From: Iphione sp. A-MEVVRFRX5
Lineage: Eukaryota
Length of the DNA: 64,000 nucleotides
Reading direction: 5' to 3'
NCBI GenBank assembly: GCA_976226885.1
Contig: OZ320317.1
Location: forward strand, 70,122,001-70,186,000
Below the pieces are notes generated by a model. It was not told the origin of the DNA and ran no database searches. It was given only the letters and a program-made list of their open reading frames with translations. Positions within the stretch are counted from its first letter, which is position 1. Every line of letters begins with the position of its first letter. This document shows, piece by piece, positions 18,368-62,055 of this stretch. The translations under genes were made by a program, and so were the position numbers.

Positions 18368-18844
18368 TGTAGTTTCTACTTGGGTTCAATAAAGAACTGA
18401 CAACTCTGAGTCCTGATTCAAAACTGTCTTTATTCAGGTTCCCTCTCATATTTATATCTTTTCTCCAATCCAGGCACTAGCCAATCATCTGTCAGTAACA
18501 GAGTAAGAAAATACATTGTTACCTTCTTTAACAGCCCTTTCAACTAACCCACCAACCAGGAGAGAGCAAAGTATCACTTTTGGGGCTGTGGGACCACAGC
18601 CGAGTGCTGCCGATCCAATCACAAGAGAGCTTTGAGACTCCAGGGTAGTTTGTTTTAAATCCAGGGGTGGCTGTGGTACCACAGCGACCCTTAGTGCATG
18701 TGCACCGAGTCCAGTACTCCTGCACTTACTTCGTTTGACCAGTGCACCCCGACTGTGGCACCACACACTTCTGCGCACAGGGCGTGCGCCCGTGCCTCCA
18801 CCTGTGGCACCACAGCTCGCGGCCGGCTCCTGTATACCACTACA
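18368..18844 (-). repeat. 3' LTR
   Basis: Differs from 27877-28353 at 6 of 477 positions by manual comparison; minus-strand TATAAAT (~18450) and AATAAA (18434-18429); four TGTGG-N2-CCACA palindromes. Confidence 0.97.
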
Positions 18845-18857
18845 CTCTCCCCTCTTT
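18845..18857 (-). other. Polypurine tract
   Basis: AAAGAGGGGAGAG directly abuts the 3' LTR on the minus strand. Confidence 0.9.
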
Positions 18858-19082
18858 AAATTACACCCACCCCTGAGGGGTGGGGCGAAGCATCACACCC
18901 TAGAAGATCAATGTAGGAACAGCAATTCTAACTCAATCTCCCAACACTATAGCCACTAGGTAGCTTCCTTAATTTTAGCACCAATGAAATTTCTCTCGCC
19001 ATCATTACTTAACACCTGCTAAAATTTTACAATGCATCTAATCCCAAACGTATCCAAGTGTCCCTGAGCATGCAGTCTTATA

Positions 19083-19312
19083 GGCTTGAACTACGGCTTA
19101 CGGCCGTGGTAGTTCAGTAACACAGTCATATCAAATGAACTAAGGCTTACGGCCATGATAGTTCAGTGCAATAGTCATATCAGATGTGGAGGTATGTAGT
19201 CCTCTGAATGTGAAGTAAGGCTTACGGCCGTGGCAGTTCAGTGAAACAGTCATATCAAGTATGGGGGCTTAAGGCCGCAAAAGTTCAACCAACCAATCAT
19301 ATAAAAAAAACA
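19083..19312. repeat. Four degenerate ~50-70-bp direct repeats in the element's 3' untranslated region
   Basis: GGCTTA(C/A)GGCCRYRRYAGTTCA...A(G/A)TCATAT at ~19095, 19144, 19218 and 19266. Confidence 0.75.
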
Positions 19313-19535
19313 CTATCATACTTTGAATTCAACAACGGAGAAGCCCGTGTTGGGCAAAACTTGACCTCTACGTAAACTCTGAATCTTGCCTCACTCTCTC
19401 GGAGGAAAGTTTGATCATCGGGATGATATCAGTCTCACGTGGAGTTTGAGGCCCGAGCAACGACACCAACTCAAATAAAAAAACATTCTTTAACCGCTCG
19501 GGCCCCTACTCACCACCCTGTGGAGGTCGGCTGTT

Positions 19536-20605
19536 CTACTCCTCCGTCCACATCACATCAGTGTTGGTGCGAAGCTGCTGAGGGGGGCGGGCCTCCAGAA
19601 GGTCCCACACAGTGGGATCCTCCGCTCGTTGTTGGGCCCGCGCCGCCTGCGCCTCCCGCTCCCAGGTGTCGAAGGCCTCGCGCCTCGAGGCTGCCGTCGT
19701 CGCGTAGGTCGGACGCGGGTCTTCGAGGAGGTTGGTCGCGGCTTCGATGGAGCGGTTGTGCCAGCGGGTGACACGTTCGCGGTCGCCCCACTCGAGCCGG
19801 TCAGGGATCCGCATCCCTTCCAATGCGAGGACCGGCCGCCTGACCAGGGGGTCGATGAGGTGCTGCGGCGATGCCTCCGACTCCGCCAGGGCCAGAACCC
19901 ACGCCAAGGAGGAACTGGCGATGAAGCGCGAGGTGGGGCTCATCTCCATCCAGCGGGGAGGGGGCCATTCCAGCCGCTGGGGAAGACGTACCATAGTGGG
20001 AACCATGACGGCTCGCCGTACCGCCGGGTAGGGTGGCACTCGGCCGTCCAGAATCTCCCGGACTCGACGGGACAGCGGGCCGAGCATGGGCGTGGTGAGC
20101 TCCCGTTCTGCCAGTCGTTGAAGGTGTCCTGGTGGGAGGGCTGCCTCCCGGGGCCGATCGCTTGACGGATGAGGGTGTCCGGAGGCCTCCCAAGCCGTCA
20201 GGGTGTCGAGGAGGGCGGCCGGACTCCAGTCAGGGGTCGGGAGGGATGGCCCCCCCCGCAGTAGACTAGTGACTGACGCGGGCGTCCCTGGAGTGGCGCT
20301 GCTGCTTCGCGGTAGGCGGGAGCCGTCAATCCCCTCTCCACGACCCATGGATGGCGCCGCCGCAAGTGGGCGAGCCAGGTGCCCGGCTCGCCTAGGACGC
20401 TGGGACAGAAGAGGCAGTCCATCTGTCGGTGTCGACAGCCCCCATGCTGCTCCTTCTGATGGCGCTCCAAGGACTCCCCCGCCCAGTACACCCGGTGGGG
20501 TGTGCAGAGCTCGCACCAAGCCGTACCAGGGGGCAGGGGCTCTCCTTCCTCCACCTGGGGTGCCGGGGGATGTGCCACTTTCTGCCGGGGCATGCCGCTT
20601 GCCAT
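19536..20605 (-). CDS. Retrotransposon accessory protein: two C2H2-type zinc fingers plus an unknown C-terminal domain, ~356 aa if the G8 run at 20250-20257 is read as G9
   Basis: From the ATG at 20605: CELC-x14-HQKEQH and CLFC-x12-HLRRRH. The overlapping 382-aa frame becomes protein-like from GPSLPTPDWSPAALL onward. One extra G at the run joins the two frames. Confidence 0.65.
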
Positions 20606-20630
20606 AGAGAGGGACGGCCAGGCAGGGTGG

Positions 20631-21463
20631 TTGTGGAACCACAAGCTCGTTGACAGTACCGGTTAGGTCAAGACGTGGGGCCACAGACTACAACACACAG
20701 AGATGAACAGTCAATGGCAGATAATCACTGTGGTACCACGGACAACAAGCTGGCTGCCTTGGGGTGGTCACTCAGCCGCCCTTACCTATCGTCGGAGATG
20801 GAGGTGCGAGGTGCGGCCACAGCCCGGTGATGGCGACTGCTGCTCCTCGCCCAGTCACTTGATCCTTCCGCAGCGTCTGCCCGAAACCGTGGTCTGTGGT
20901 TCCACGCTCACGATCGGCCTCCTGTTTCTCAATGCCCCGTCGGATGTGTCCACACAGAAAGACTTATTTTTGGCACTGTCCCCCGGTGTCCCCACTGTTC
21001 TTCTCAGCCTCTTCTCTCCCTCACGTGGCCAGCTGTGGTGCCACGGGCCGCCATTGATCACGTCTCGCGAGACCACGGGTTCTCTCGCGCCCCGCGAGAT
21101 CCCGTGTCCCGCGTCCGTATCTCATCTGTGGGCCCGCAGCGAAACTGCTTACTCTACGACTGCTGAAGGTTCATTCTTTTTGTACTATAGGGGACTGGTA
21201 GGGATAGGACAAAACTGTGCTACACCACTCTATTTCCCTTCCTTCGGCTGTGGCACCACAGGCACTTTCGCTGCGTTCTCCCTCCAGAGGGCGACACCTC
21301 CTCCCCGCCTGTGGTTCCACAGCCCGTTCACCTGATACATTGTATCAGTTATTTCCCCCGATCCCACCAATCTCCCGTTATGTTGGATCTCTGTGGCACC
21401 ACAGTATGAGTGGTTACCCTCCCAGCCAATCGCTCGAACGCCAATGATATCTGTGGCACCACA
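20631..21463. promoter_or_regulatory. Cluster of ~10 TGTGG-N2-CCACA palindromes between the divergent accessory genes
   Basis: Copies at ~20631, 20674, 20728, 20894, 21033, 21126, 21248, 21309, 21391 and 21451; the half-sites are conserved and the 2-nt spacer varies. Confidence 0.75.
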
Positions 21464-21560
21464 TACACGATCTTCGCTGCCCGCCGTAGCCAATCATCTT
21501 GGCTCACTGCGCTCCCCCCAAATATAAATGAGATGGGCTACGGCCAGCCTGCTTCATCTG
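21424..21560 (+). promoter_or_regulatory. Putative internal antisense Pol II promoter
   Basis: Three CCAAT boxes (~21426, 21441, 21490), TATAAAT at 21523-21529, and an Inr-like TCA ~30 nt downstream. Confidence 0.6.
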
Positions 21561-21760
21561 GACTCTTGCTGCACCCCACCAGGCTTCTCTATCCTTCCAG
21601 CTACCCCTTCCAGCTACCCCAGTTCTACAGGTATCCATCTTATGTAGGAATGGCAACTGTTTAACATCTTTGAACTAGCTGAACCAGAGACAAATCATTT
21701 TTTTTTTTTTTTTTTTTTTTTTTTTCACGGGTTTCTCCCTTTTTCAGCCTAAACCCAGCC

Positions 21761-22630
21761 ATGACCAATCAAGGGACCGCGTTTGGGCACCTTCCTGCTA
21801 CCGCTCTTCGGCCTTATCGCCTGTGAGTGTTTGGATAACTCTTCCTCTACTTCCATTCGTTCTAAGTGTTATCCAACATCGCCCCTTCCTGGAGTTTAGT
21901 GTCAGCCAGACCCATCTTCATTTTTCCTGCCTATTTTCTCTTCCACAGGCTCCGCTATCGACCCACCCTGCCCGGGTCAACTCCCTCTGGCGTGAACATT
22001 CATACAGAAGGGCCGGTGGTACGAGTTTCCGGCACCCATGAGATCATAGATGCCCCCTTCATCTTGCCCGTTCCGGGTCGTCTGATCTTCCTGGGACCGC
22101 TTCACATGATTGACCTGGTGGTACGCCCCATCGCCCCTCCTGGCTCGGCGCGGCCCCCGCCAACGATGCCCGCCCCATCAGACTGGGCTGCTTGCTACAC
22201 CACCCCGCTGCCCCCACCGGCTTCTCCCTCCTCCAGTGCTTCCGGGTATAGCACCGACAGCCCCTCATCCCTTACCAGCAGTCGTCTGGACCCCTGGGGA
22301 TCCCACCAGGACCTCTCCGCGATGGGCGCATCACCACCCCCGGCGGATGGATCGGGCCGCTCCTCTCCAAGCCCGCGGCCGTCACCCGCCCCGTCAGGAA
22401 AAGACTCTGTACTGCCTCCGTCTCTGGCCGTCATGAGGCCAGAATGCACTACCCCCGAGACAGGCGATGACATCTCCTGCGGCTCCTCACCCCTGGGGAC
22501 TTCCCCTCCGGGAGGTCATGTGCCCTTCTCGGCGATTTCGACTCCCGCCCTGGCAGCCTGGTATCGTCAGCTTCGTTGGGGCGACGCCCCCTTCTGCCCT
22601 ATTCTGGTATCTTCCTCCGATGAGGAATAG
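21761..22630 (+). CDS. Spliced antisense accessory gene of the Gypsy element, 247 aa, unknown function
   Basis: Kozak ccagccATG at 21761; donor CT|GTGAGT at 21823; acceptor ttttctcttccacag|G at 21948; both phase 2. The product runs MTNQGTAFGHLPATALRPYRLLRYRPTL...FCPILVSSSDEE*. AATAAA lies at 22697-22702, followed by a GT-rich tract. An upstream intron 21631-21747 contains a T28 tract. Confidence 0.65.
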
Positions 22631-23024
22631 GACTTTGAATGGCAATTATACTCCCCATGCTAAGTACTCTGTAGTTGCGTGGCCGACATACCTTGAAATA
22701 AATTTCAGCTAACTGATTTGTCCCTTGTGTTCGTTCTATGTTCTATTCGCTCTCAGACTTAACTATTCTCACCCCGCTCGTCATCCCGTAGCAGCGACCA
22801 GAGGACATAACCCGAGCAGGTTCTAATTCTTACACCCTGGTCCGGGTTGGCTCTACCCCTGATAGCGTGCCGGCTCACCCAGAGGACAAAGCCTGGTCAG
22901 ACCTCCGTCTCCTTCTGGCCCAGGCCGGCTCCACCGTCAGTTCCACCTTCATGGTCTGTCAACTTCTCAGCTACCACGGGCCTACACTGCGAGTGGCCGC
23001 AGTGCTGCCCTCCCTAACCGGGAG

Positions 23025-23372
23025 CCTCCCCCCCTTTTCTCCCCCTAGAACTTTTGGGTACCACACCCGGGGATGTCCAGCCTCCCCCTCTGGAGCTTTT
23101 GGGTCCCGCACCCGAGGATGTCCAGCCTCCCCCCCCTGGAGCTTTTGGGTCCCACACCCGAGGATGTCCAGCCTCCCCCCTCTGGAGCTTTTGGGTCCCA
23201 CACCCGGGGATGTCCAGCCTCCCCCTCTGGAGCTTTTGGGTCCCATACCCGAGGATGTCCAGCCTCCCCCCTCTGGAGCTTTTGGGTCCCACACCCGAGG
23301 ATGTCCAGCCTCCCCCTCTGGAGCTATTGGGTCCCGTACCCGGGGATGTCCAGCCTCCCCTCCCTGGAGCTC
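23025..23372. repeat. 45-46-bp GC-rich minisatellite, ~7.5 copies, just downstream of the pol stop
   Basis: GATGTCC anchor at 23072, 23117, 23163, 23209, 23254, 23300 and 23345; units differ mainly in C-run length. Confidence 0.93.
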
Positions 23373-23415
23373 TCTGCTCTCCCTAGTCCGACCTCCATTG
23401 GAAGACTTTTTCTTT

Positions 23416-26400
23416 TTACGAGCTCCCTTCCTTATTCGCGCGCCGCCACCAAGACGCGATCCAACGAGGTATCTCCCCACGATACAGTCGTAGGCGATTC
23501 CGGTGCACCACCTTGGGGCGAGCCCGGGCTGCCCGTTGGACCACCAATCGCTCTGGGTCCAGCACCTTGGTGACGAGCCATGGACCCGTCCAGGGCAAGT
23601 ATACTTTAGGGCTCTTCCCTCTGGGTGGTTGAGCTTCCTGTAACCACACCGCGTCCCCTTCCTGTAGGGGTTCCCCTTTTGCCTGGCGATCATATCCTCT
23701 AGCCTGCGTCCGTGCAGCCTTTACCAAGTGCTCCCGGACCGTCTGGTAAGCCCTCTTCAGCTGGCGTTGAAGGCGCTGTACCCACTCTGGCATAGTCACC
23801 TGTTCCTTCCCCTCCCACTCGCTAAGAGGGAGGCCATCCATCGCATGCGCTGGCAGGACCACCTCCCGACCGAACATCAGGAAGTTAGGTGTGAAGCCAG
23901 TACTGGCTTGGGGGGAAGCTCGGTACGCCATCATAAGCAGTGGGAGTGCTTCGTCCCAGTCGTCGTCGGTATCATGGCAGTGGGCTTTAATCATTTTCCC
24001 TAGCGTGCGAAAGCTCCTTTCGATAAATCCGTCCCCCTGGGGGTGCCTAGGGGTCGTCTTGGTTCGCTGGATTTGCAAGAACTCGCACAGAGCAGAAACA
24101 ACTTCGCTGCAGAAGTTGGTCCCTCTGTCGCTGTGGAGCTCCATGAAACATCCATACCGAGAGACCACCTCCTCCACTAGTACTTGTGCTATCCGGGTTG
24201 CCCTCTGATCAGGCAGTGGGAAGGCCTCTAGCCATTTAGTAAAGTGGTCCCCCACCATTAAGATATAACAGTTGCCCCGCTTGGTATGGGGGAACGGACT
24301 GGCCACGTCCATGGACCATCTCTCCATTGGCTCCCCGGACACATAAGTGCGCAGCGTTGTCTGTGGGCGGAAGGGGTTTACTGTGAGGAGGGCACAGTGG
24401 CATTTCGCACAGAAGTTTTGTATATCTTGTTGCATCCCAGGCCAGTAATATGCCAAAGACACCAAGAAGGTGGTACGGTCTATCCCTAAGTGGCTACCCA
24501 TCCGGCCTTGGTGGATTTCTTCGATAGCCTTGACTCGTCGCTGCGCAGGGAGTACCAGCTGCAAGCGTGTTCTTGAGGCTTCGAGCTCATGCCACCGCCG
24601 GTATAGCAGCCCCTCTTGGACCACCAGACGGTCCCACTGCTGCCATAGTTTCTTGGCCGCCCTTGACAAGGGAGAAATGTTTTCCCACTCTGGCCTACCA
24701 GACGTATCCTCCTTCAGCGTCAGGATAGGTCCAATATCTGGGTCATCCAGCTGCGCACCCCGAAGGGCGCGATCTGCCGCCCCCTGGGTGCGGCCTCGGG
24801 TGACGACTCGTACCTCCACCCCATGCTCTTGCTTGCACTGTTTACACGGCATTCGGGATAGAGCATCCGCATTACCATGTAGGCGCCCTGGTCGGTGCTG
24901 AAGGTGGAGGTGATATTGACCGATTCTCTCCAGCCATCGGGCTAACTGCCCCTCAGGGTCCCGAATACGGCTCAACCAGCTAACCGCCCCATTGTCCGTC
25001 CGCACCGTGACCTCCTGCCCGTATATAAAAAAATGAAAATGTTTCAAAGCAGCTACCACCGCCAGCAGCTCCCTCCGCATCACACAATACCTCCATTCCG
25101 GTGACGTGAGGCTGCGACTAAAGTATGCGAGGACTACCTCCTGGCCTTCCTGCTCTTGGGAAAGCACGGCTCCCAGCCCTACATTGCTGGCGTCTGTGTC
25201 CAAATAAAAACGTCCCTTAGGCATCGGGTAGCCCAGCACGGGACTGGCCTGCAATGCCCGTTTCAGGGCTTCGAAGGCCTCCTCTTCTTCGGGGCCCCAA
25301 TAAAACCGGGTCCGAGGGCTAGTCAGCCGGTGTAGGGGTGCTGCTAGATCGGCGAAATGAGCCACCAGACGGCGGTAGTAGGAACAAAGTCCGAGAAAGG
25401 CTCTTATGTCAGTAGTGGAAGTCGGCTTCGGCCATTCCTGGATACACTGCACCTTCCCGGGATCTGCCGAAATCCCCCGATAGGACACCCGATGCCCCAG
25501 GAAGGGAACCTCCTCAAGGAACAAACGGCATTTAGCCAGTTTCAATTTTAAACCAGCAGCCTCAATTCGAGAGAGCACCCGATCCAACCGAGCTAGCGTC
25601 TCCCCAAAATCCCGCCCGAATACCAATACGTCGTCCAGATAGACTAGACATTGCTCCCAGGTCAGTCCCCTGAGTACCGTGTCCATTAAGCGCTCAAACG
25701 TAGCGGGAGCGTTGACCAACCCAAACGGCATCACCGTAAACTCGTACAACCCCGAGGATGTGGTGAAGGCCGTCTTTTCCTGGTCCCGCGGATCCATCTT
25801 AACCTGCCAATAGCCCGATGCTAAGTCTAACGAACAAAAGTACCGAGCTCCCGCCAGTGCGCTTAACGAATCATCAACTCTGGGTAGGGGATACGCATCA
25901 ACCTTCGTCTGTTGGTTTAGTTTCCGGTAATCGACACAGAAACGAGTAGTCCCATCCTTCTTGCGTACCATGACTACGGGACTTGCCCAGGGGCTCTGGC
26001 TCTCGACAATGACCCCGGCCTCTGCCATTTCCCTTACTAGTTGCTGTTCTTCCTGTCTTTTTGACAGGGGCAGGCGCCGAGGTTGCTGTTTAATGGGACC
26101 TGACTCCCCCGTGCAAATACGATGTTGCACCACGTCCGTACAACCCAAATCACCTTTGTGTTGTGTAAAGGCCCCCCTGTGCCGTTCTAACACCACCCGC
26201 AGCTCTCCCTGTTCCCCTCCAGTGAGGTGAACTGTCTTAGTGGCCATCAACTCATCTATCACGGTCCCTGCCCCCACCTTTGTGGTAGCCACTTTCAGGG
26301 GGTGATCTTGAGGGCAGTCAGTAACCTCCTCCCTCTGCACTGGCGAGCCAAGGGCTAGAGACGTCCCCTGTTGGATCAACAGTTCCCTCTCCCCAGTGTT

Positions 26401-27006
26401 CCACACGGGCAGCACCTGGCTTACAATGCAGCGCACTCCTACCACCCCTTGTAATAACTGACCCTCCTCTAAGCCCTCTACCAAGAATGGGCCCTCTCCA
26501 CTGGGAGACACTGGGACCCCCACCCCTTCCCCAGGGGGAACCGTAATATCGGAGGCTGCCCTCAGTACCTTAACTCCTCTGGTCTGTTCCTTCCCCCTAG
26601 GGGTCCCTCCAAACAAAACCTCCCCCTGTGACAAGTCAATGACAGTGCCATGCTGGGTCAAGAAATCTGCCCCCAATATCCCATCCCCTTCTATCTCTGC
26701 TAACAGGAAGTGGTGTTTGAATTCTTTTCCAGCAATCCCTACTTGAACTTCCTCTCTCCCTACCGTTGGCAGGATATGGCCCCCTACCCCCATAACCTTC
26801 ACAGCAGCCCTCTTAACAACTGGGCCAGGGACCACACAGGGATTCATAATGGAAACTTCAGCACCCGTATCAATAAGCAGTAGGAGTGTCCTCCCACCAC
26901 AGCTTACCTTGAGATGTGGTCCCTGGCCGTATTCCATTATCACCTCCTGGTGGACAGATGCAGTCGGTGTCCCCTGGCCTACTGAGCCGACTGCTGTGTG
27001 TTTTCC
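23416..27006 (-). CDS. pol: Pol polyprotein (protease, reverse transcriptase, RNase H, integrase), probably expressed by -1 frameshift from gag
   Basis: The 1175-aa ORF 23416-26943 contains LLIDTGA (PR), FCVDYRKLN and YLDD (RT), LDTDAS (RNase H), H...H...CAKC plus SMDV/HSDRG/IERS (integrase) and WTGPW (GPY/F). The frame is open up to 27012. Confidence 0.97.
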   Translation of the reverse strand, partial: GKHTAVGSVGQGTPTASVHQEVIMEYGQGPHLKVSCGGRTLLLLIDTGAEVSIMNPCVVPGPVVKRAAVKVMGVGGHILPTVGREEVQVGIAGKEFKHHFLLAEIEGDGILGADFLTQHGTVIDLSQGEVLFGGTPRGKEQTRGVKVLRAASDITVPPGEGVGVPVSPSGEGPFLVEGLEEGQLLQGVVGVRCIVSQVLPVWNTGERELLIQQGTSLALGSPVQREEVTDCPQDHPLKVATTKVGAGTVIDELMATKTVHLTGGEQGELRVVLERHRGAFTQHKGDLGCTDVVQHRICTGESGPIKQQPRRLPLSKRQEEQQLVREMAEAGVIVESQSPWASPVVMVRKKDGTTRFCVDYRKLNQQTKVDAYPLPRVDDSLSALAGARYFCSLDLASGYWQVKMDPRDQEKTAFTTSSGLYEFTVMPFGLVNAPATFERLMDTVLRGLTWEQCLVYLDDVLVFGRDFGETLARLDRVLSRIEAAGLKLKLAKCRLFLEEVPFLGHRVSYRGISADPGKVQCIQEWPKPTSTTDIRAFLGLCSYYRRLVAHFADLAAPLHRLTSPRTRFYWGPEEEEAFEALKRALQASPVLGYPMPKGRFYLDTDASNVGLGAVLSQEQEGQEVVLAYFSRSLTSPEWRYCVMRRELLAVVAALKHFHFFIYGQEVTVRTDNGAVSWLSRIRDPEGQLARWLERIGQYHLHLQHRPGRLHGNADALSRMPCKQCKQEHGVEVRVVTRGRTQGAADRALRGAQLDDPDIGPILTLKEDTSGRPEWENISPLSRAAKKLWQQWDRLVVQEGLLYRRWHELEASRTRLQLVLPAQRRVKAIEEIHQGRMGSHLGIDRTTFLVSLAYYWPGMQQDIQNFCAKCHCALLTVNPFRPQTTLRTYVSGEPMERWSMDVASPFPHTKRGNCYILMVGDHFTKWLEAFPLPDQRATRIAQVLVEEVVSRYGCFMELHSDRGTNFCSEVVSALCEFLQIQRTKTTPRHPQGDGFIERSFRTLGKMIKAHCHDTDDDWDEALPLLMMAYRASPQASTGFTPNFLMFGREVVLPAHAMDGLPLSEWEGKEQVTMPEWVQRLQRQLKRAYQTVREHLVKAARTQARGYDRQAKGEPLQEGDAVWLQEAQPPRGKSPKVYLPWTGPWLVTKVLDPERLVVQRAARARPKVVHRNRLRLYRGEIPRWIASWWRRANKEGSS

Positions 27007-27845
27007 GACGGTTTAGGCCCTGTAGCGTTCGATGCTTGCTGTGGGGCTTTCGGGCAATCTCTCTTCCAGTGACCCGGTTGCTTGCAGATGAAACACAAAT
27101 TGTCCCTGGGCCGAGACCTCTGAGGTCGCAGTTCCTCCCGTAGTTTGGCAAACTCCTGCATTAGGACTTCCACCATGTCCTTGGGTGCTGGGCTGTTAGA
27201 ATCCTTGTTGCCACTTGCTTGTATGGCATTCACTCTCCTCGCGGGGAACCGCTCCTGGATCTCCACTACCTGTAGTGCAGCCTCCATGGTCTTGCATTGG
27301 GCTTCTAAACATTTCAAATGCAGGTCGTCCGGGAGTGCCCGTTGGAAGGCCGACACTGCTGCTAATTCTCGTGTTTCCGCACTCACATCGGGGTACGCGG
27401 TGCGTACAAGTCGTCGGACTTTGTCAGCAAACCCCTTAGCATCCTCCCCTTTCTGCCTGCAGATCGTGGACAGGTCTTGCATAGCCGTCACTCGATTGCG
27501 TCGACGCCCAAACCGCTTCTCCAAGGCAGCTACCCTGGACTCAAAGTCGGCCTTGTCCTCCGATGGGAGGTCTCCAAAGTACATTTGGGCGGTGCCAGTC
27601 AACGACAGAGCCAGTGCTGAAGCTCTTGTGTTCGGACTCCACTTGCATGCATCTGCCCATTCGACAAACTGGACAATCCAGCTGTCCCAGTCGACTACGC
27701 TGCCATCGAATCGCTTGGGCTTCATGGCGTTGGTGCGTAGTGGCTCCTCTGGGGCTAACACATAAGGTTCAGCTTCCTCTTCATCATCCGCATCCGGTAC
27801 GCGCAACTGTACCTCGTCATCAACTGCCACAAACTTAGTAGCCAT
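26979..27845 (-). CDS. gag: Gag, 288 aa, with a CCHC zinc knuckle
   Basis: KPKRFDGSVVDWDSWIVQF capsid-like start; CFICKQPGHWKRDC knuckle; ATG just after the PBS. Confidence 0.95.
   Translation of the reverse strand: MATKFVAVDDEVQLRVPDADDEEEAEPYVLAPEEPLRTNAMKPKRFDGSVVDWDSWIVQFVEWADACKWSPNTRASALALSLTGTAQMYFGDLPSEDKADFESRVAALEKRFGRRRNRVTAMQDLSTICRQKGEDAKGFADKVRRLVRTAYPDVSAETRELAAVSAFQRALPDDLHLKCLEAQCKTMEAALQVVEIQERFPARRVNAIQASGNKDSNSPAPKDMVEVLMQEFAKLREELRPQRSRPRDNLCFICKQPGHWKRDCPKAPQQASNATGPKPSENTQQSAQ
27000..27006 (-). other. Candidate -1 ribosomal frameshift site G_GAA_AAC
   Basis: In the gag frame (TCG GAA AAC), inside the gag/pol overlap; pol is in the -1 frame. Confidence 0.6.
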
Positions 27846-27857
27846 GATGTACAGTGG

Positions 27858-27875
27858 ATCCCACTTCTGACACCA
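27858..27875 (-). other. Primer-binding site complementary to the tRNA-Leu 3' end
   Basis: TGGTGTCAGAAGTGGGAT, 1 nt from the 5' LTR; complementary to ...ATCCCACTTCTGACACCA of tRNA-Leu(CAA/CAG type). Confidence 0.88.
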
Positions 27876-27876
27876 G

Positions 27877-28353
27877 TGTAGTTTCTACTTGGGTTCAATA
27901 AAGAACTGACAACTCTGAGTCCTGATTCAAAACTGTCTTTATTCAGGTTCCCTCTCATATTTATATCTTTTCTCCAATCCAGGCACTAGCCAATCATCTG
28001 TCAGTAACAGAGTAAGAAAATACATTGTTACCTTCTTTAACAGCCCTTTCAACTAACCCACCAACCAGGAGAGAGCAAAGTATCACTTTTTGGGCTGTGG
28101 GACCACAGCCGAGTGCTGCCGATCCAATCACAAGAGAGCTTTGAGACTCCAGGGTAGTTTGTTTTAAATCCAGGGGTGGCTGTGGTACCACAGTGACCCT
28201 TAGTGCATGTGCACCGAGTCCAGTACTCTTGCACTTACTTCGTTTGACCAGTGCACCCCGACTGTGGCACCACACACTTCTGCGCACAGGGCGTGCGCCC
28301 GTGCCTCCACCTGTGGCACCACAGCTCACGGCCAGCTCCTGCATACCACTACA
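27877..28353 (-). repeat. 5' LTR
   Basis: 477 bp, TG...CA, followed by the TSD ATAC. Confidence 0.97.
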
Positions 28354-58678: not shown

Positions 58679-59091
58679 TACATGTTGATGAAATCTCCTG
58701 GTTATTACATCTTCAGGCCCGTAACTAGACCTAGGGATATGTGTGTTCGAGGAGTGTCTTTAGTTCATGTTGGACCTCTAAGTGACTAATTAATGTATTC
58801 ATGCACTCTTAAAAACTATTATACTGATATGATTCAGTTATTATTTCTGTATTTCTATTAGCTTGCACAGTAAGTATAACATGACGCCTGCAAACACCAA
58901 TCTCTCTCCTAGATGGGGTTCCGGAGAACCCTCCGAATCCACTGGCCTGATCTATATGTTACGGAATGTGCATGTGGGAAAACAGTAATTTATTGGTTCA
59001 GTTACATGTACCTGCAATCGTATACTTAAAATATATTGATTAATCATAGCCATTTCTTCCCTTCTATTAAATCATATATTTCAGGACCATC

Positions 59092-62055
59092 ATGGCTGAT
59101 AACCGACGCACGAGGGAAACACCTTTACTTTCAGAAAGAGAAACGTCCCCAGAAAGAGATCTTTCTAAACAAAGAAGAAAAAAGCACCGCCATCGAAGAG
59201 CACGAAAGAGGAATTCTGTCCAGCCTTGTCCATCCAACTCCCATTCATCACAACAAGATTCCCCCATACACCGGCGACATGTATCTACCCATGGCCAGAC
59301 TACCACTCACGTGAGACTTACTCAAAACCGTGCTGCAGTACACAGAGACTCCGTCGAATATGTTGGGGATAACATAACTATCACTACCTCACACCCGCTG
59401 GTAACAGAAATCACCTCGACAGGCAAGTCATCCAGGAAAACCCAGTCTACAGCACTGACTACTTCTACCTCACAGGCCTCTTCCCCCACTGATGTGCCAT
59501 CACCTAGGATGCTAGACACGAACTTTAGGACCAAACCGTCAACCCAACAACGCAAACATGGAGGAAGAGGTCATGCATACAGTGGGGCCCACAGTGATGA
59601 AATACAGAGGAAGAGTATTAGAAAAGGAAACAGGAAGCCTGGTGAGGTACACGACGAGCATGATGCAGACTGGTTTCAAGCATATAACACATGCATCATG
59701 AAGAAATGGAAGACATGTCTGTTGGCTTCAATGGCAAGAACACCTCATTCACGCATCATAGATCACTTTACGAGTCGCTATCCAGGGCAGGAGGGAGACA
59801 TCTTTGCTGCTGTGAAGGAGAAGCAGGACTCAAGCGATCAGTTTATTGTTGCTCCCATCGATCTTGAATATATTAGCTGCTGCTTGGATGAAGGTGTCAG
59901 TGTGGATGAGCAGGATGTGCGCGGTCAAACCGTGCTCATGGAGGCCGTCCGTGCCTGGCATCTTGATATCATCGACTACCTGATCTCTAATGAAGCTGAT
60001 GTGCACCATTACGACCATTATTGTCGCGCACCCATCCACGTGGCGGCAGCAGCTGACCGCCCCAGTATTATCCGGCGACTTCTCCAGGCGGGCGCTTCAG
60101 TCAACGCCAAAGCCAATCGCACTGCGGAGACTCCCCTACACCTGGCCGCACGGCGAGGGGCCACCTCTGCAATGATGACATTAATGGAATTTGGAGCTCA
60201 GAAAGAAGCTCGCGATTATTGTGGAAGGACGCCATTCTACCTGGCAGCAGAGTATGGCAGATCAAATGCTGTGATTGTCATGCTGAATGCCAAGGCCAAC
60301 CCCTTGGTATGTGACAAAAGCGATGTCCCTGCTTTTGTGCACATTGTTCGTAAGTGCCCAACCATTGTCGATGAGGTGTTAGATCAGTTGGTATTCCATG
60401 ATAGGGTATCTGGTAAAACACAGGCCACAATTTCTAAGCTATACGTGGCACCTGAATCCTGGGACAGGACGGTAGGTACAACCCTAACACTAGATGTTAT
60501 AGAAAGTGAGCGTTGTGAGTCCGCCGTTCTACATCAAGTCGTGAATGCAATGATCAAGGAACAGTGGCAGACGTTTGGCCGGATATGGACCATAGTGAAT
60601 TTTTTCTCACGCCTCCTTTTTTTCTGTGTCTGGACGGCCTGGATCGCAGCAATAGATTGGGAGGATAAACACATCTATGACTGGGAGATGCACTGGTGGC
60701 GAGCCTTGCTACCGATGCTTGGCGTGATCCTGATCATATGGGAAATCAAAATTGAATGTGAAGAGTTTATATATAACAGACGTCGAAGGCTAGCCCTCAC
60801 TAACCTGGCTCTCAAAAACATTACCAGTGATACGCAGAAACTAGCTCACCCAAGCTGGCCTGACGAAAAGGAGTACCTTGATGATGTTGAGAACAAACTG
60901 CAAAGGCAAAAAGGCTTTTGGCAGCAAATGGTACTCTACTGGCGCGATCTCTGGAACTGGTATGATGGAGCAGTCTTTAGCCTGATGCTGGCATGCATGT
61001 TTACTCATGTACTGGATATAAACAATCCCAGTGTTGGTATTGCACGCCTCCACGGTCAGCTGGGCAGTGTGGTTATCCTCATGTTAGGTCTGCGTCTGAT
61101 GAAAGACCTGCGAGGCTTCATAGGACCTGGGCGCATTATCATCATGCTTGGACTGATGGCTGGTGACTTTGGCCGCTTCATCGCCGTATTCATACTTCTT
61201 TTCGTCCCCTGTACCTTCTCCTTCTGGGTGATTTTTGGAGGGAGGAGGTTTCCCTATGATGCTATATGTGCATTCAACTGTAGTAATGTACAACTAAACT
61301 GTACAGCGAATTGCTCGTTAGTATTTGCTCCCTGTTACTCACCTGATATGAGAAACTGTACATCAAATCAGTCAGCTTTAATAGTAACACACATGGAGTC
61401 CTACTTCTCAGTCTGGTTTGCACTACTTCGCTTATCACTTGTTGATGATTACGATCTTGAGACCATGTATGCCATCGACCCATTCATGTCACTTGTTCTA
61501 GTAAGTGCATTCCTTGTTATGTCTGCTCTTGTCGGAGTCAACTTCCTTATTGGCCTTATCTCCAATGTTCTGGGTGAGGGAACCAGACAAGTGGTGGATG
61601 CCTTATCCCTACTGCAGAGGCTAAGTGTCATGCTACTTATCGAGCAGACTCCTTACATATGTCACCCACGGCCACGACAACTTCGAGAGCATCTCAGGGC
61701 CTCATCTGATCGGGTCACAATTCAAAACACGCTGCATGGTGTGTCCGAACACACAATTAAAAGTAACATTTCCCTCATGTCTATTACTGTCAAGGAACTT
61801 CAACAGGAGATGCAGACACTTATGAAGAAAGTGGGGTCTGAGCTCGATGGTGACAAAGATGAGGAAAACCTGTGGTCCAGACAGATAAGCACCTCTTGCA
61901 AGGACAGCAACGTGTCTCGTAGACGGTCAGCAGACCATGGTACAAACACTAACGGAGCTAACACAATGTCCTATACCAATCGCTCCAAACACTCCGCTCA
62001 TGAAAAGCATGATAAGTATAACATACCTCCTGCAAGAATTGATATTGAGGATTGA
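59092..62055 (+). CDS. Ankyrin-repeat TRP-family cation channel (TRPA/TRPV-like), 987 aa, single coding exon
   Basis: About 4-5 ankyrin repeats (GQTVLMEAV, RAPIHVAA, ETPLHLAA, RTPFYLAA); six hydrophobic segments with a pore loop; TRP-box-like LLQRLSVMLLIEQ after S6; C-terminal coiled-coil-like segment; splice acceptor 7 nt before the ATG. Confidence 0.88.
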   Translation: MADNRRTRETPLLSERETSPERDLSKQRRKKHRHRRARKRNSVQPCPSNSHSSQQDSPIHRRHVSTHGQTTTHVRLTQNRAAVHRDSVEYVGDNITITTSHPLVTEITSTGKSSRKTQSTALTTSTSQASSPTDVPSPRMLDTNFRTKPSTQQRKHGGRGHAYSGAHSDEIQRKSIRKGNRKPGEVHDEHDADWFQAYNTCIMKKWKTCLLASMARTPHSRIIDHFTSRYPGQEGDIFAAVKEKQDSSDQFIVAPIDLEYISCCLDEGVSVDEQDVRGQTVLMEAVRAWHLDIIDYLISNEADVHHYDHYCRAPIHVAAAADRPSIIRRLLQAGASVNAKANRTAETPLHLAARRGATSAMMTLMEFGAQKEARDYCGRTPFYLAAEYGRSNAVIVMLNAKANPLVCDKSDVPAFVHIVRKCPTIVDEVLDQLVFHDRVSGKTQATISKLYVAPESWDRTVGTTLTLDVIESERCESAVLHQVVNAMIKEQWQTFGRIWTIVNFFSRLLFFCVWTAWIAAIDWEDKHIYDWEMHWWRALLPMLGVILIIWEIKIECEEFIYNRRRRLALTNLALKNITSDTQKLAHPSWPDEKEYLDDVENKLQRQKGFWQQMVLYWRDLWNWYDGAVFSLMLACMFTHVLDINNPSVGIARLHGQLGSVVILMLGLRLMKDLRGFIGPGRIIIMLGLMAGDFGRFIAVFILLFVPCTFSFWVIFGGRRFPYDAICAFNCSNVQLNCTANCSLVFAPCYSPDMRNCTSNQSALIVTHMESYFSVWFALLRLSLVDDYDLETMYAIDPFMSLVLVSAFLVMSALVGVNFLIGLISNVLGEGTRQVVDALSLLQRLSVMLLIEQTPYICHPRPRQLREHLRASSDRVTIQNTLHGVSEHTIKSNISLMSITVKELQQEMQTLMKKVGSELDGDKDEENLWSRQISTSCKDSNVSRRRSADHGTNTNGANTMSYTNRSKHSAHEKHDKYNIPPARIDIED

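Follow-up and report, generated by a model that had tools for sequence, protein, structure and literature searches.

A predicted spliced gene on the antisense strand of Ty3/Gypsy retrotransposons in an Iphione genome

A young Ty3/Gypsy LTR retrotransposon in the genome of Iphione sp. A-MEVVRFRX5 carries, on the strand opposite to its gag and pol genes, what is very probably a real, spliced coding gene. The element lies in a stretch of 64,000 nucleotides of contig OZ320317.1, here called the window, and an abundant, recently active retrotransposon lineage carries the gene. A preliminary description of the window had claimed a complete spliced antisense gene inside the element, and this claim is strongly supported by conservation across families, by the intron phase and by purifying selection specific to one reading frame. 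The partner zinc-finger gene, the palindromes and the scarcity of lysine reported below are additions to that description. Because it is both antisense and spliced, the gene is invisible to ORF-based annotation. Whether or not the mechanism proposed below is correct, the gene adds an animal case to the antisense accessory genes known from Gypsy elements of plants and fungi.

In plants, antisense ORFs located between pol and the 3' LTR are well established (PMC7264820), and the plant cases are restated in PMC8220671. The former also calls for the study of antisense and spliced transcripts of retrotransposons; for animal retrotransposons, its passages on the subject are limited to antisense RNAs that do not code for protein and to antisense promoter activity. 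In fungi, the Boty-like Gypsy elements of Botrytis cinerea likewise carry an additional gene, brtn, in antisense orientation (Zhao et al. 2011). Neither the extra ORFs of rotifer elements (PMC5408684) nor the env gene of Oikopleura Tor elements, which has an internal promoter (PMC4402516), is called antisense in the parts of those papers that deal with them.

The gene described here shares several properties with the aORF-3R class (antisense additional ORF, pol to 3' LTR): it has this orientation in 56 of 56 loci with pol/gag, is present in most copies and is conserved under selection. Conserved signals suggest that it may also have its own promoter, as members of the class do. It differs from the closest known antisense additional ORFs in its animal host, its unrelated protein (no Pfam match), its intron signals, its paired sense zinc-finger gene and its lysine desert. 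No spliced antisense Gypsy gene from an animal was found in the freely accessible literature searched. The layout is already known; what that literature does not show is such a gene in an animal, this protein family, a divergent cassette of two genes or the lysine desert.

The antisense gene and its host element

The element occupies 9986 bp on the minus strand (18368–28353) and is bounded by a 4-bp target duplication, ATAC. It has the paired TG..CA LTRs, primer-binding site, polypurine tract and target duplication of an LTR retrotransposon, and the order of its pol domains (protease, RT, RNase H, integrase) places it in Ty3/Gypsy. The 5' LTR (27877–28353) and the 3' LTR (18368–18844), each 477 bp long, differ by six mismatches. 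Both contain four copies of a TGTGG-N2-CCACA palindrome; the 5' LTR has CCAAT, TATA and AATAAA signals, and the polypurine tract lies just inside the 3' LTR. The primer-binding site (27859–27876) is one that we take to be Leu-tRNA-like. Both gag (26979–27845), which includes a CCHC knuckle, and pol (23416–27012; 1197 aa) are open, and the named database relatives of pol are almost all animal, in keeping with an animal host, as is the TRP-channel-like gene elsewhere in the window. The two genes overlap by 34 nt in differing frames (26979–27012), which fits frameshift expression. Between pol and the 3' end of the antisense gene lies a tandem array of seven 46-bp copies (23041–23371), which is also present in diverged copies of the element; this array and another of ~49-bp repeats (19070–19258) flank the accessory cassette.

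The antisense gene reads along the plus strand. Its putative promoter (21367–21529) combines a TATAAAT box at 21523, where the preliminary description had placed it, with CCAAT boxes, of which four are found (21367, 21426, 21441 and 21490) rather than the three counted earlier. Transcription in the window presumably starts at ~21556, since 15 of 18 loci have an initiator-like YCAKY 31–33 nt past the TATA box. As this predicted start lies downstream of the ATG at 21533, exon 1 (21556–21630) should be non-coding, as had been supposed. This ATG is also missing from the most diverged alignable copy and was rejected as the start codon. Exon 1 ends at the donor CAG/GTATCC, with intron 1 beginning at 21631. 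This predicted 5' UTR intron (21631–21747) has a T28 tract at 21698–21725 and ends at the acceptor TTTTCAG at 21747; donor, tract and acceptor are all as first read.

Predicted exon 2 (21748–21822) contains the start codon at 21761 and ends in phase 2. The position of the ATG stands, but the Kozak context credited to it is only partial (GCC ATG A). It is followed by a predicted intron 2 of 126 nt (21823–21948), whose phase and place are common to other families. The coding part of exon 3 (21949–22630), nearly lysine-free and under purifying selection, completes a product of 247 aa, with a TAG stop that ends at 22630. The first AATAAA on the plus strand past this stop is at 22697–22702, with a GT-rich element downstream. 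The coordinates given earlier for the second intron, the stop and the poly(A) signal hold. It is highly probable, as far as these signals can tell, that the internal TATA promoter drives transcription and that the message is spliced.

Introns on the antisense strand survive reverse transcription of the sense RNA. The proposal that the orientation shields the introns of this gene is sound logic, in line with what is established for retroelements, and may hold here. It would not be the only way of keeping introns: a sense-strand donor/acceptor pair in front of the neighbouring ORF3 (20785/20688, minus strand) is also kept, each site in five of six copies compared.

Conservation and selection

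A DNA search of the genome (1.18 Gb in 89 contigs) gave 20 matches. Once the window's own copy and the pieces that were split or duplicated had been set aside, 15 distinct copies were aligned. These copies reach down to about 66–74% nucleotide identity. All 15 retain the intron-2 acceptor and the stop codon, 14 the ATG and the intron-2 donor, 13 the intron-1 donor, the intron-1 acceptor and the AATAAA, and 12 the TATAAA; where two copies lack a site, they are mostly the two most decayed ones. Even the most diverged of the copies compared, with introns 62–65% identical, retains both donors and the second acceptor. No stop interrupts nine of 11 full-length matches with at least 89% protein identity. 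Conservation of the splice sites and of the frame across copies had been set as a test of the gene, and both are kept. As read from the alignment, the conservation of these sites exceeds chance.

About ten of the Gypsy families in this genome have a homologous antisense gene in the corresponding position, with a protein that is about 30% identical. A first look for the domain of one family gave 954 candidates, of which 150 were scored. With exon 3 as the protein query, 146 of 150 scored candidates matched, most with 29–40% identity, and many of the matches begin at the acceptor and end at the stop. In a set of 60 loci of 10 kb, fetched by homology and hand-picked to span identity classes, the antisense gene homologue is present in 60 of 60, and it lies opposite ORF3 in all 55 loci that have ORF3. 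Among the first 40 loci, the best acceptor is in phase 2 in 36 (two of them doubtful, in damaged copies), in phase 0 in three and absent in one. Features conserved across the families include the spacing of TATA and initiator, the phase-2 intron, a β domain, an LDPW motif, motifs in the tail and the poly(A) signal. At one place (loci L041 and L042, G000:C5 near 2.94 Mb), two copies of the antisense gene lie in tandem, 1.5 kb apart.

The RT-RNase H sequences of the families are 76–82% identical to that of the window, compared with 64% for the best of the database proteins tested. The families form one clade against six database proteins in an RT-RNase H tree, with weak support (84/88). Trees of RT, the antisense protein and ORF3 are concordant in their tip groupings; their deep order is discordant and poorly resolved, and co-evolution is therefore not claimed.

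Substitution patterns point to selection on the protein. In 14 of 15 pairs, which are not all mutually independent, dS can be estimated and dN/dS is 0.08–0.34 (the remaining pair is saturated), and third codon positions differ most in all 15. For the β domain, dN/dS is 0–0.32 in all pairs but the closest, where it is 0.81 on three differences. Stops occur in the other five frames in each of 11 representatives, and all three element-sense frames carry 1–11 of them; since these representatives were picked for intact frames, the zero-stop count of the annotated frame itself is circular. As judged from these comparisons, purifying selection acts in the antisense frame only.

The partner gene and the palindrome hub

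Head-to-head with the antisense gene is a second accessory gene, ORF3 (19536–20593, minus strand), which runs in the sense direction from 20593 and encodes tandem C2H2-like fingers followed by a conserved C domain. Compared with a sister copy, the copy in the window has a 558-nt deletion near 20309, which breaks the gene. Its intact relatives are about 470–600 aa long from the first Met, with a C domain of ~200 aa. Weak Pfam zinc-finger matches were found in four of seven (E 0.004–0.3), and no database homologue was found by a word-index search with an alignment or in the ESM Atlas. Between close elements, ORF3 apparently changes more quickly than either RT or the antisense protein.

The two genes are separated by a putative internal regulatory region, the hub (20632–21463), which contains ten TGTGG-N2-CCACA palindromes. 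There are 19 such palindromes in the window against 3.1 expected, and 18 of them are in the LTRs or the hub: four in each LTR (18587–18814 and 28096–28323), ten between the genes and one elsewhere, with none in coding regions. Most other families have palindromes of their own in the same places, such as TGGG-N4-CCCA and GGCG-N4-CGCC, and the top palindrome, which differs by family, exceeds the shuffle maximum in 14 of 16 other loci. A TATA-like site on the minus strand of the hub (21177–21193) stands back-to-back with the antisense TATA box, about 330 bp away.

On balance, it is likely that ORF3 binds these palindromes. The proposed pair resembles, by analogy alone, VANC of the Arabidopsis VANDAL elements, an element-encoded accessory factor that goes with family-specific repeated non-coding motifs (PMC5735166), although VANC belongs to a plant DNA transposon. 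Wherever the region is intact, the antisense gene co-occurs with ORF3.

In foamy viruses, two accessory genes, Tas and Bet, are run by an internal promoter, some of whose sites are also found in the LTR. Both of these are sense genes, whereas the antisense gene and ORF3 are divergent.

The antisense protein and its possible function

The products of 33 exons share three features: the β domain (21989–22129 in the window), the LDPW motif (22286–22297), which takes the form xLD(P/L)(W/M) in all 33 aligned proteins, and a conserved tail (22508–22627) with a short helix, a G-D/E, an aromatic-P and a hydrophobic-acidic end. Common to two AlphaFold2 models are five β-strands (pLDDT about 55–63), a disordered linker, which is acidic and Ser/Pro-rich, and a short C-terminal helix. 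The protein has no cysteine cluster. Pfam has no match to 16 members, nor does its Transposase_28 domain (PF04195), known from TRP28 of Retand, match any of them. HMMER searches of 1.84 billion representatives gave no homologue, and a word-index search with the antisense alignment, the ESM Atlas and PDB sequences gave no match. The one match in a metagenome scan, of 33 residues and without gene context, was judged spurious. With the low-confidence model as query, Foldseek against PDB and viral structures and a wide VIA-align search yielded nothing significant; the best structural comparison of the β domain in this model has a Z of 3.8, with an rmsd of 4.3 over 51 aligned residues.

The clearest clue to function is the lysine composition. 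Ten family representatives have two lysines in 2356 codons, where the base content at each codon position predicts 30.3 (Poisson P 3e-11; for K against N, P 0.005), and each of the 33 exon products (191–278 aa) has none or one, which makes the protein a lysine desert. Lysine is not depleted in ORF3, pol or gag. Lysine deserts are enriched in proteins of the ubiquitin system, including Slx5, and occur in viral proteins (PMC10169902, in its passages on these groups). They also arise simply as a means of avoiding degradation or other lysine modification.

The tail offers two further leads. The last nine residues of the protein encoded in the window are an exact match to the SxS SUMO-interaction motif (SIM) as given in PMC4476178, which is matched by three of the 33 proteins; a looser P-I/V-x-I/V-acidic tail is found in 31 of 33, and the canonical SIM core in none of the 33 tails. 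The tail profile also aligns in register with a host F-box profile over 23 columns (P 0.004; hhalign probability 8%), the tail helix of other families falling on the start of the host F-boxes. In this comparison, the best tail scores 4.6 bits against control maxima of 3–5 bits, and the tail of the window protein does not score. Pfam F-box-like matches one of 12 tails (E 0.04), the best score being 14.1 bits against the family cut-off of 24.3, and the window tail has no match. Both the SIM-like and the F-box-like reading are post hoc, and the tail weakly suggests either.

From these features, the best, though tentative, reading of the antisense protein is as an adaptor of the ubiquitin/SUMO pathway that acts against host silencing; no basic nuclear localisation signal is evident in it, which speaks against this reading. 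The ORF3 zinc-finger protein would bind the family-specific palindromes and activate the LTR and internal promoters. The β domain of the antisense protein would bind a target, its tail would recruit SUMO or an SCF-type ligase, and the lack of lysines would protect it from its own destruction. The ubiquitin/SUMO machinery hooked in this way might then weaken a silencing factor of the host. The full picture, a two-gene cassette like that of a complex retrovirus in an envelope-less animal lineage, with a palindrome-reading activator and a splicing-gated, lysine-free, ubiquitin/SUMO-hijacking adaptor that disables a silencing factor in the manner of Vif or ICP0, is rather speculative. Few proteins have been described by which animal LTR retrotransposons counter piRNA and chromatin silencing, and the antisense protein would be a small, concrete and testable candidate from an unannotated family.

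The antisense gene of HTLV-1, HBZ, is spliced. Like HBZ in relation to Tax, the antisense protein might regulate transcription of its own element, as a partner or a brake for the ORF3 activator, a reading that we regard as somewhat doubtful. The head-to-head layout over one palindrome hub, the constant company of ORF3 and the acidic Ser/Pro-rich linker all fit such a role, and retroviral antisense regulators are known, HBZ being an antisense regulatory protein gene in an animal LTR retroelement (PMC11963269, in its account of them). However, no DNA-binding or leucine-zipper domain was found in the antisense protein. Nor do the two genes evolve in lockstep: in near-identical pairs, antisense branches are 0–0.06 long and those of the ORF3 C domain 0.2–0.5. 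HBZ is also driven from the 3' LTR, whereas the gene described here has a predicted internal promoter and its own poly(A) signal, in an element that has no env, and no sequence likeness was found.

A cytoplasmic role in particle assembly, trafficking or nuclear entry is unlikely. It would make sense of the invariant short motifs within the disordered linker, one of which, LDPW, might be of the endocytic-adaptor type, and of the closer tracking of pol by the antisense protein than by ORF3 in close pairs, but it leaves the lysine desert unexplained. The protein is not env-like, with no hydrophobic stretch of transmembrane length (maximum KD19 0.5–1.8; window, 1.43). An env-like ORF was rejected on the antisense orientation and on the lack of a clear transmembrane stretch in either accessory protein.

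Most of the other families have a second, stronger donor 92–320 nt past the coding donor (loci L071, L068, L070, L092, L094, L095, L100 and L105), a layout that is not that of the window family. A message spliced from it would stop after the first-exon peptide. CAGTT words are enriched between the two donors, where 1195 nt contain 16 of them, compared with 25 in 29,600 nt. A frame-keeping middle exon between the donors was considered and rejected, there being no candidate in several families and lengths of 30 versus 29 nt within one. The second donor suggests regulated alternative splicing, with one message that is productive and one that is not. Such truncation would also suit a scheme in which the antisense RNA itself matters, by pairing with the genomic RNA or tuning small-RNA silencing, and the protein is secondary; non-coding antisense RNAs are described for Drosophila micropia (PMC7264820, in its animal examples). 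The strong purifying selection on amino acids, with dN/dS down to 0.01–0.1 in the β domain, makes this quite improbable. A GC-rich region with many overlapping open frames in the element might suggest that the antisense frame merely reflects base composition or something on the other strand. This is essentially refuted by the stops in every element-sense frame of all 11 representatives and by the similarity to distant families, which runs exactly from the acceptor to the stop codon.

Elsewhere in the window, a 994-aa open frame on the plus strand (59071–62055) encodes ankyrin repeats and an ion-transport domain, similar to a TRP channel, and is apparently intronless.
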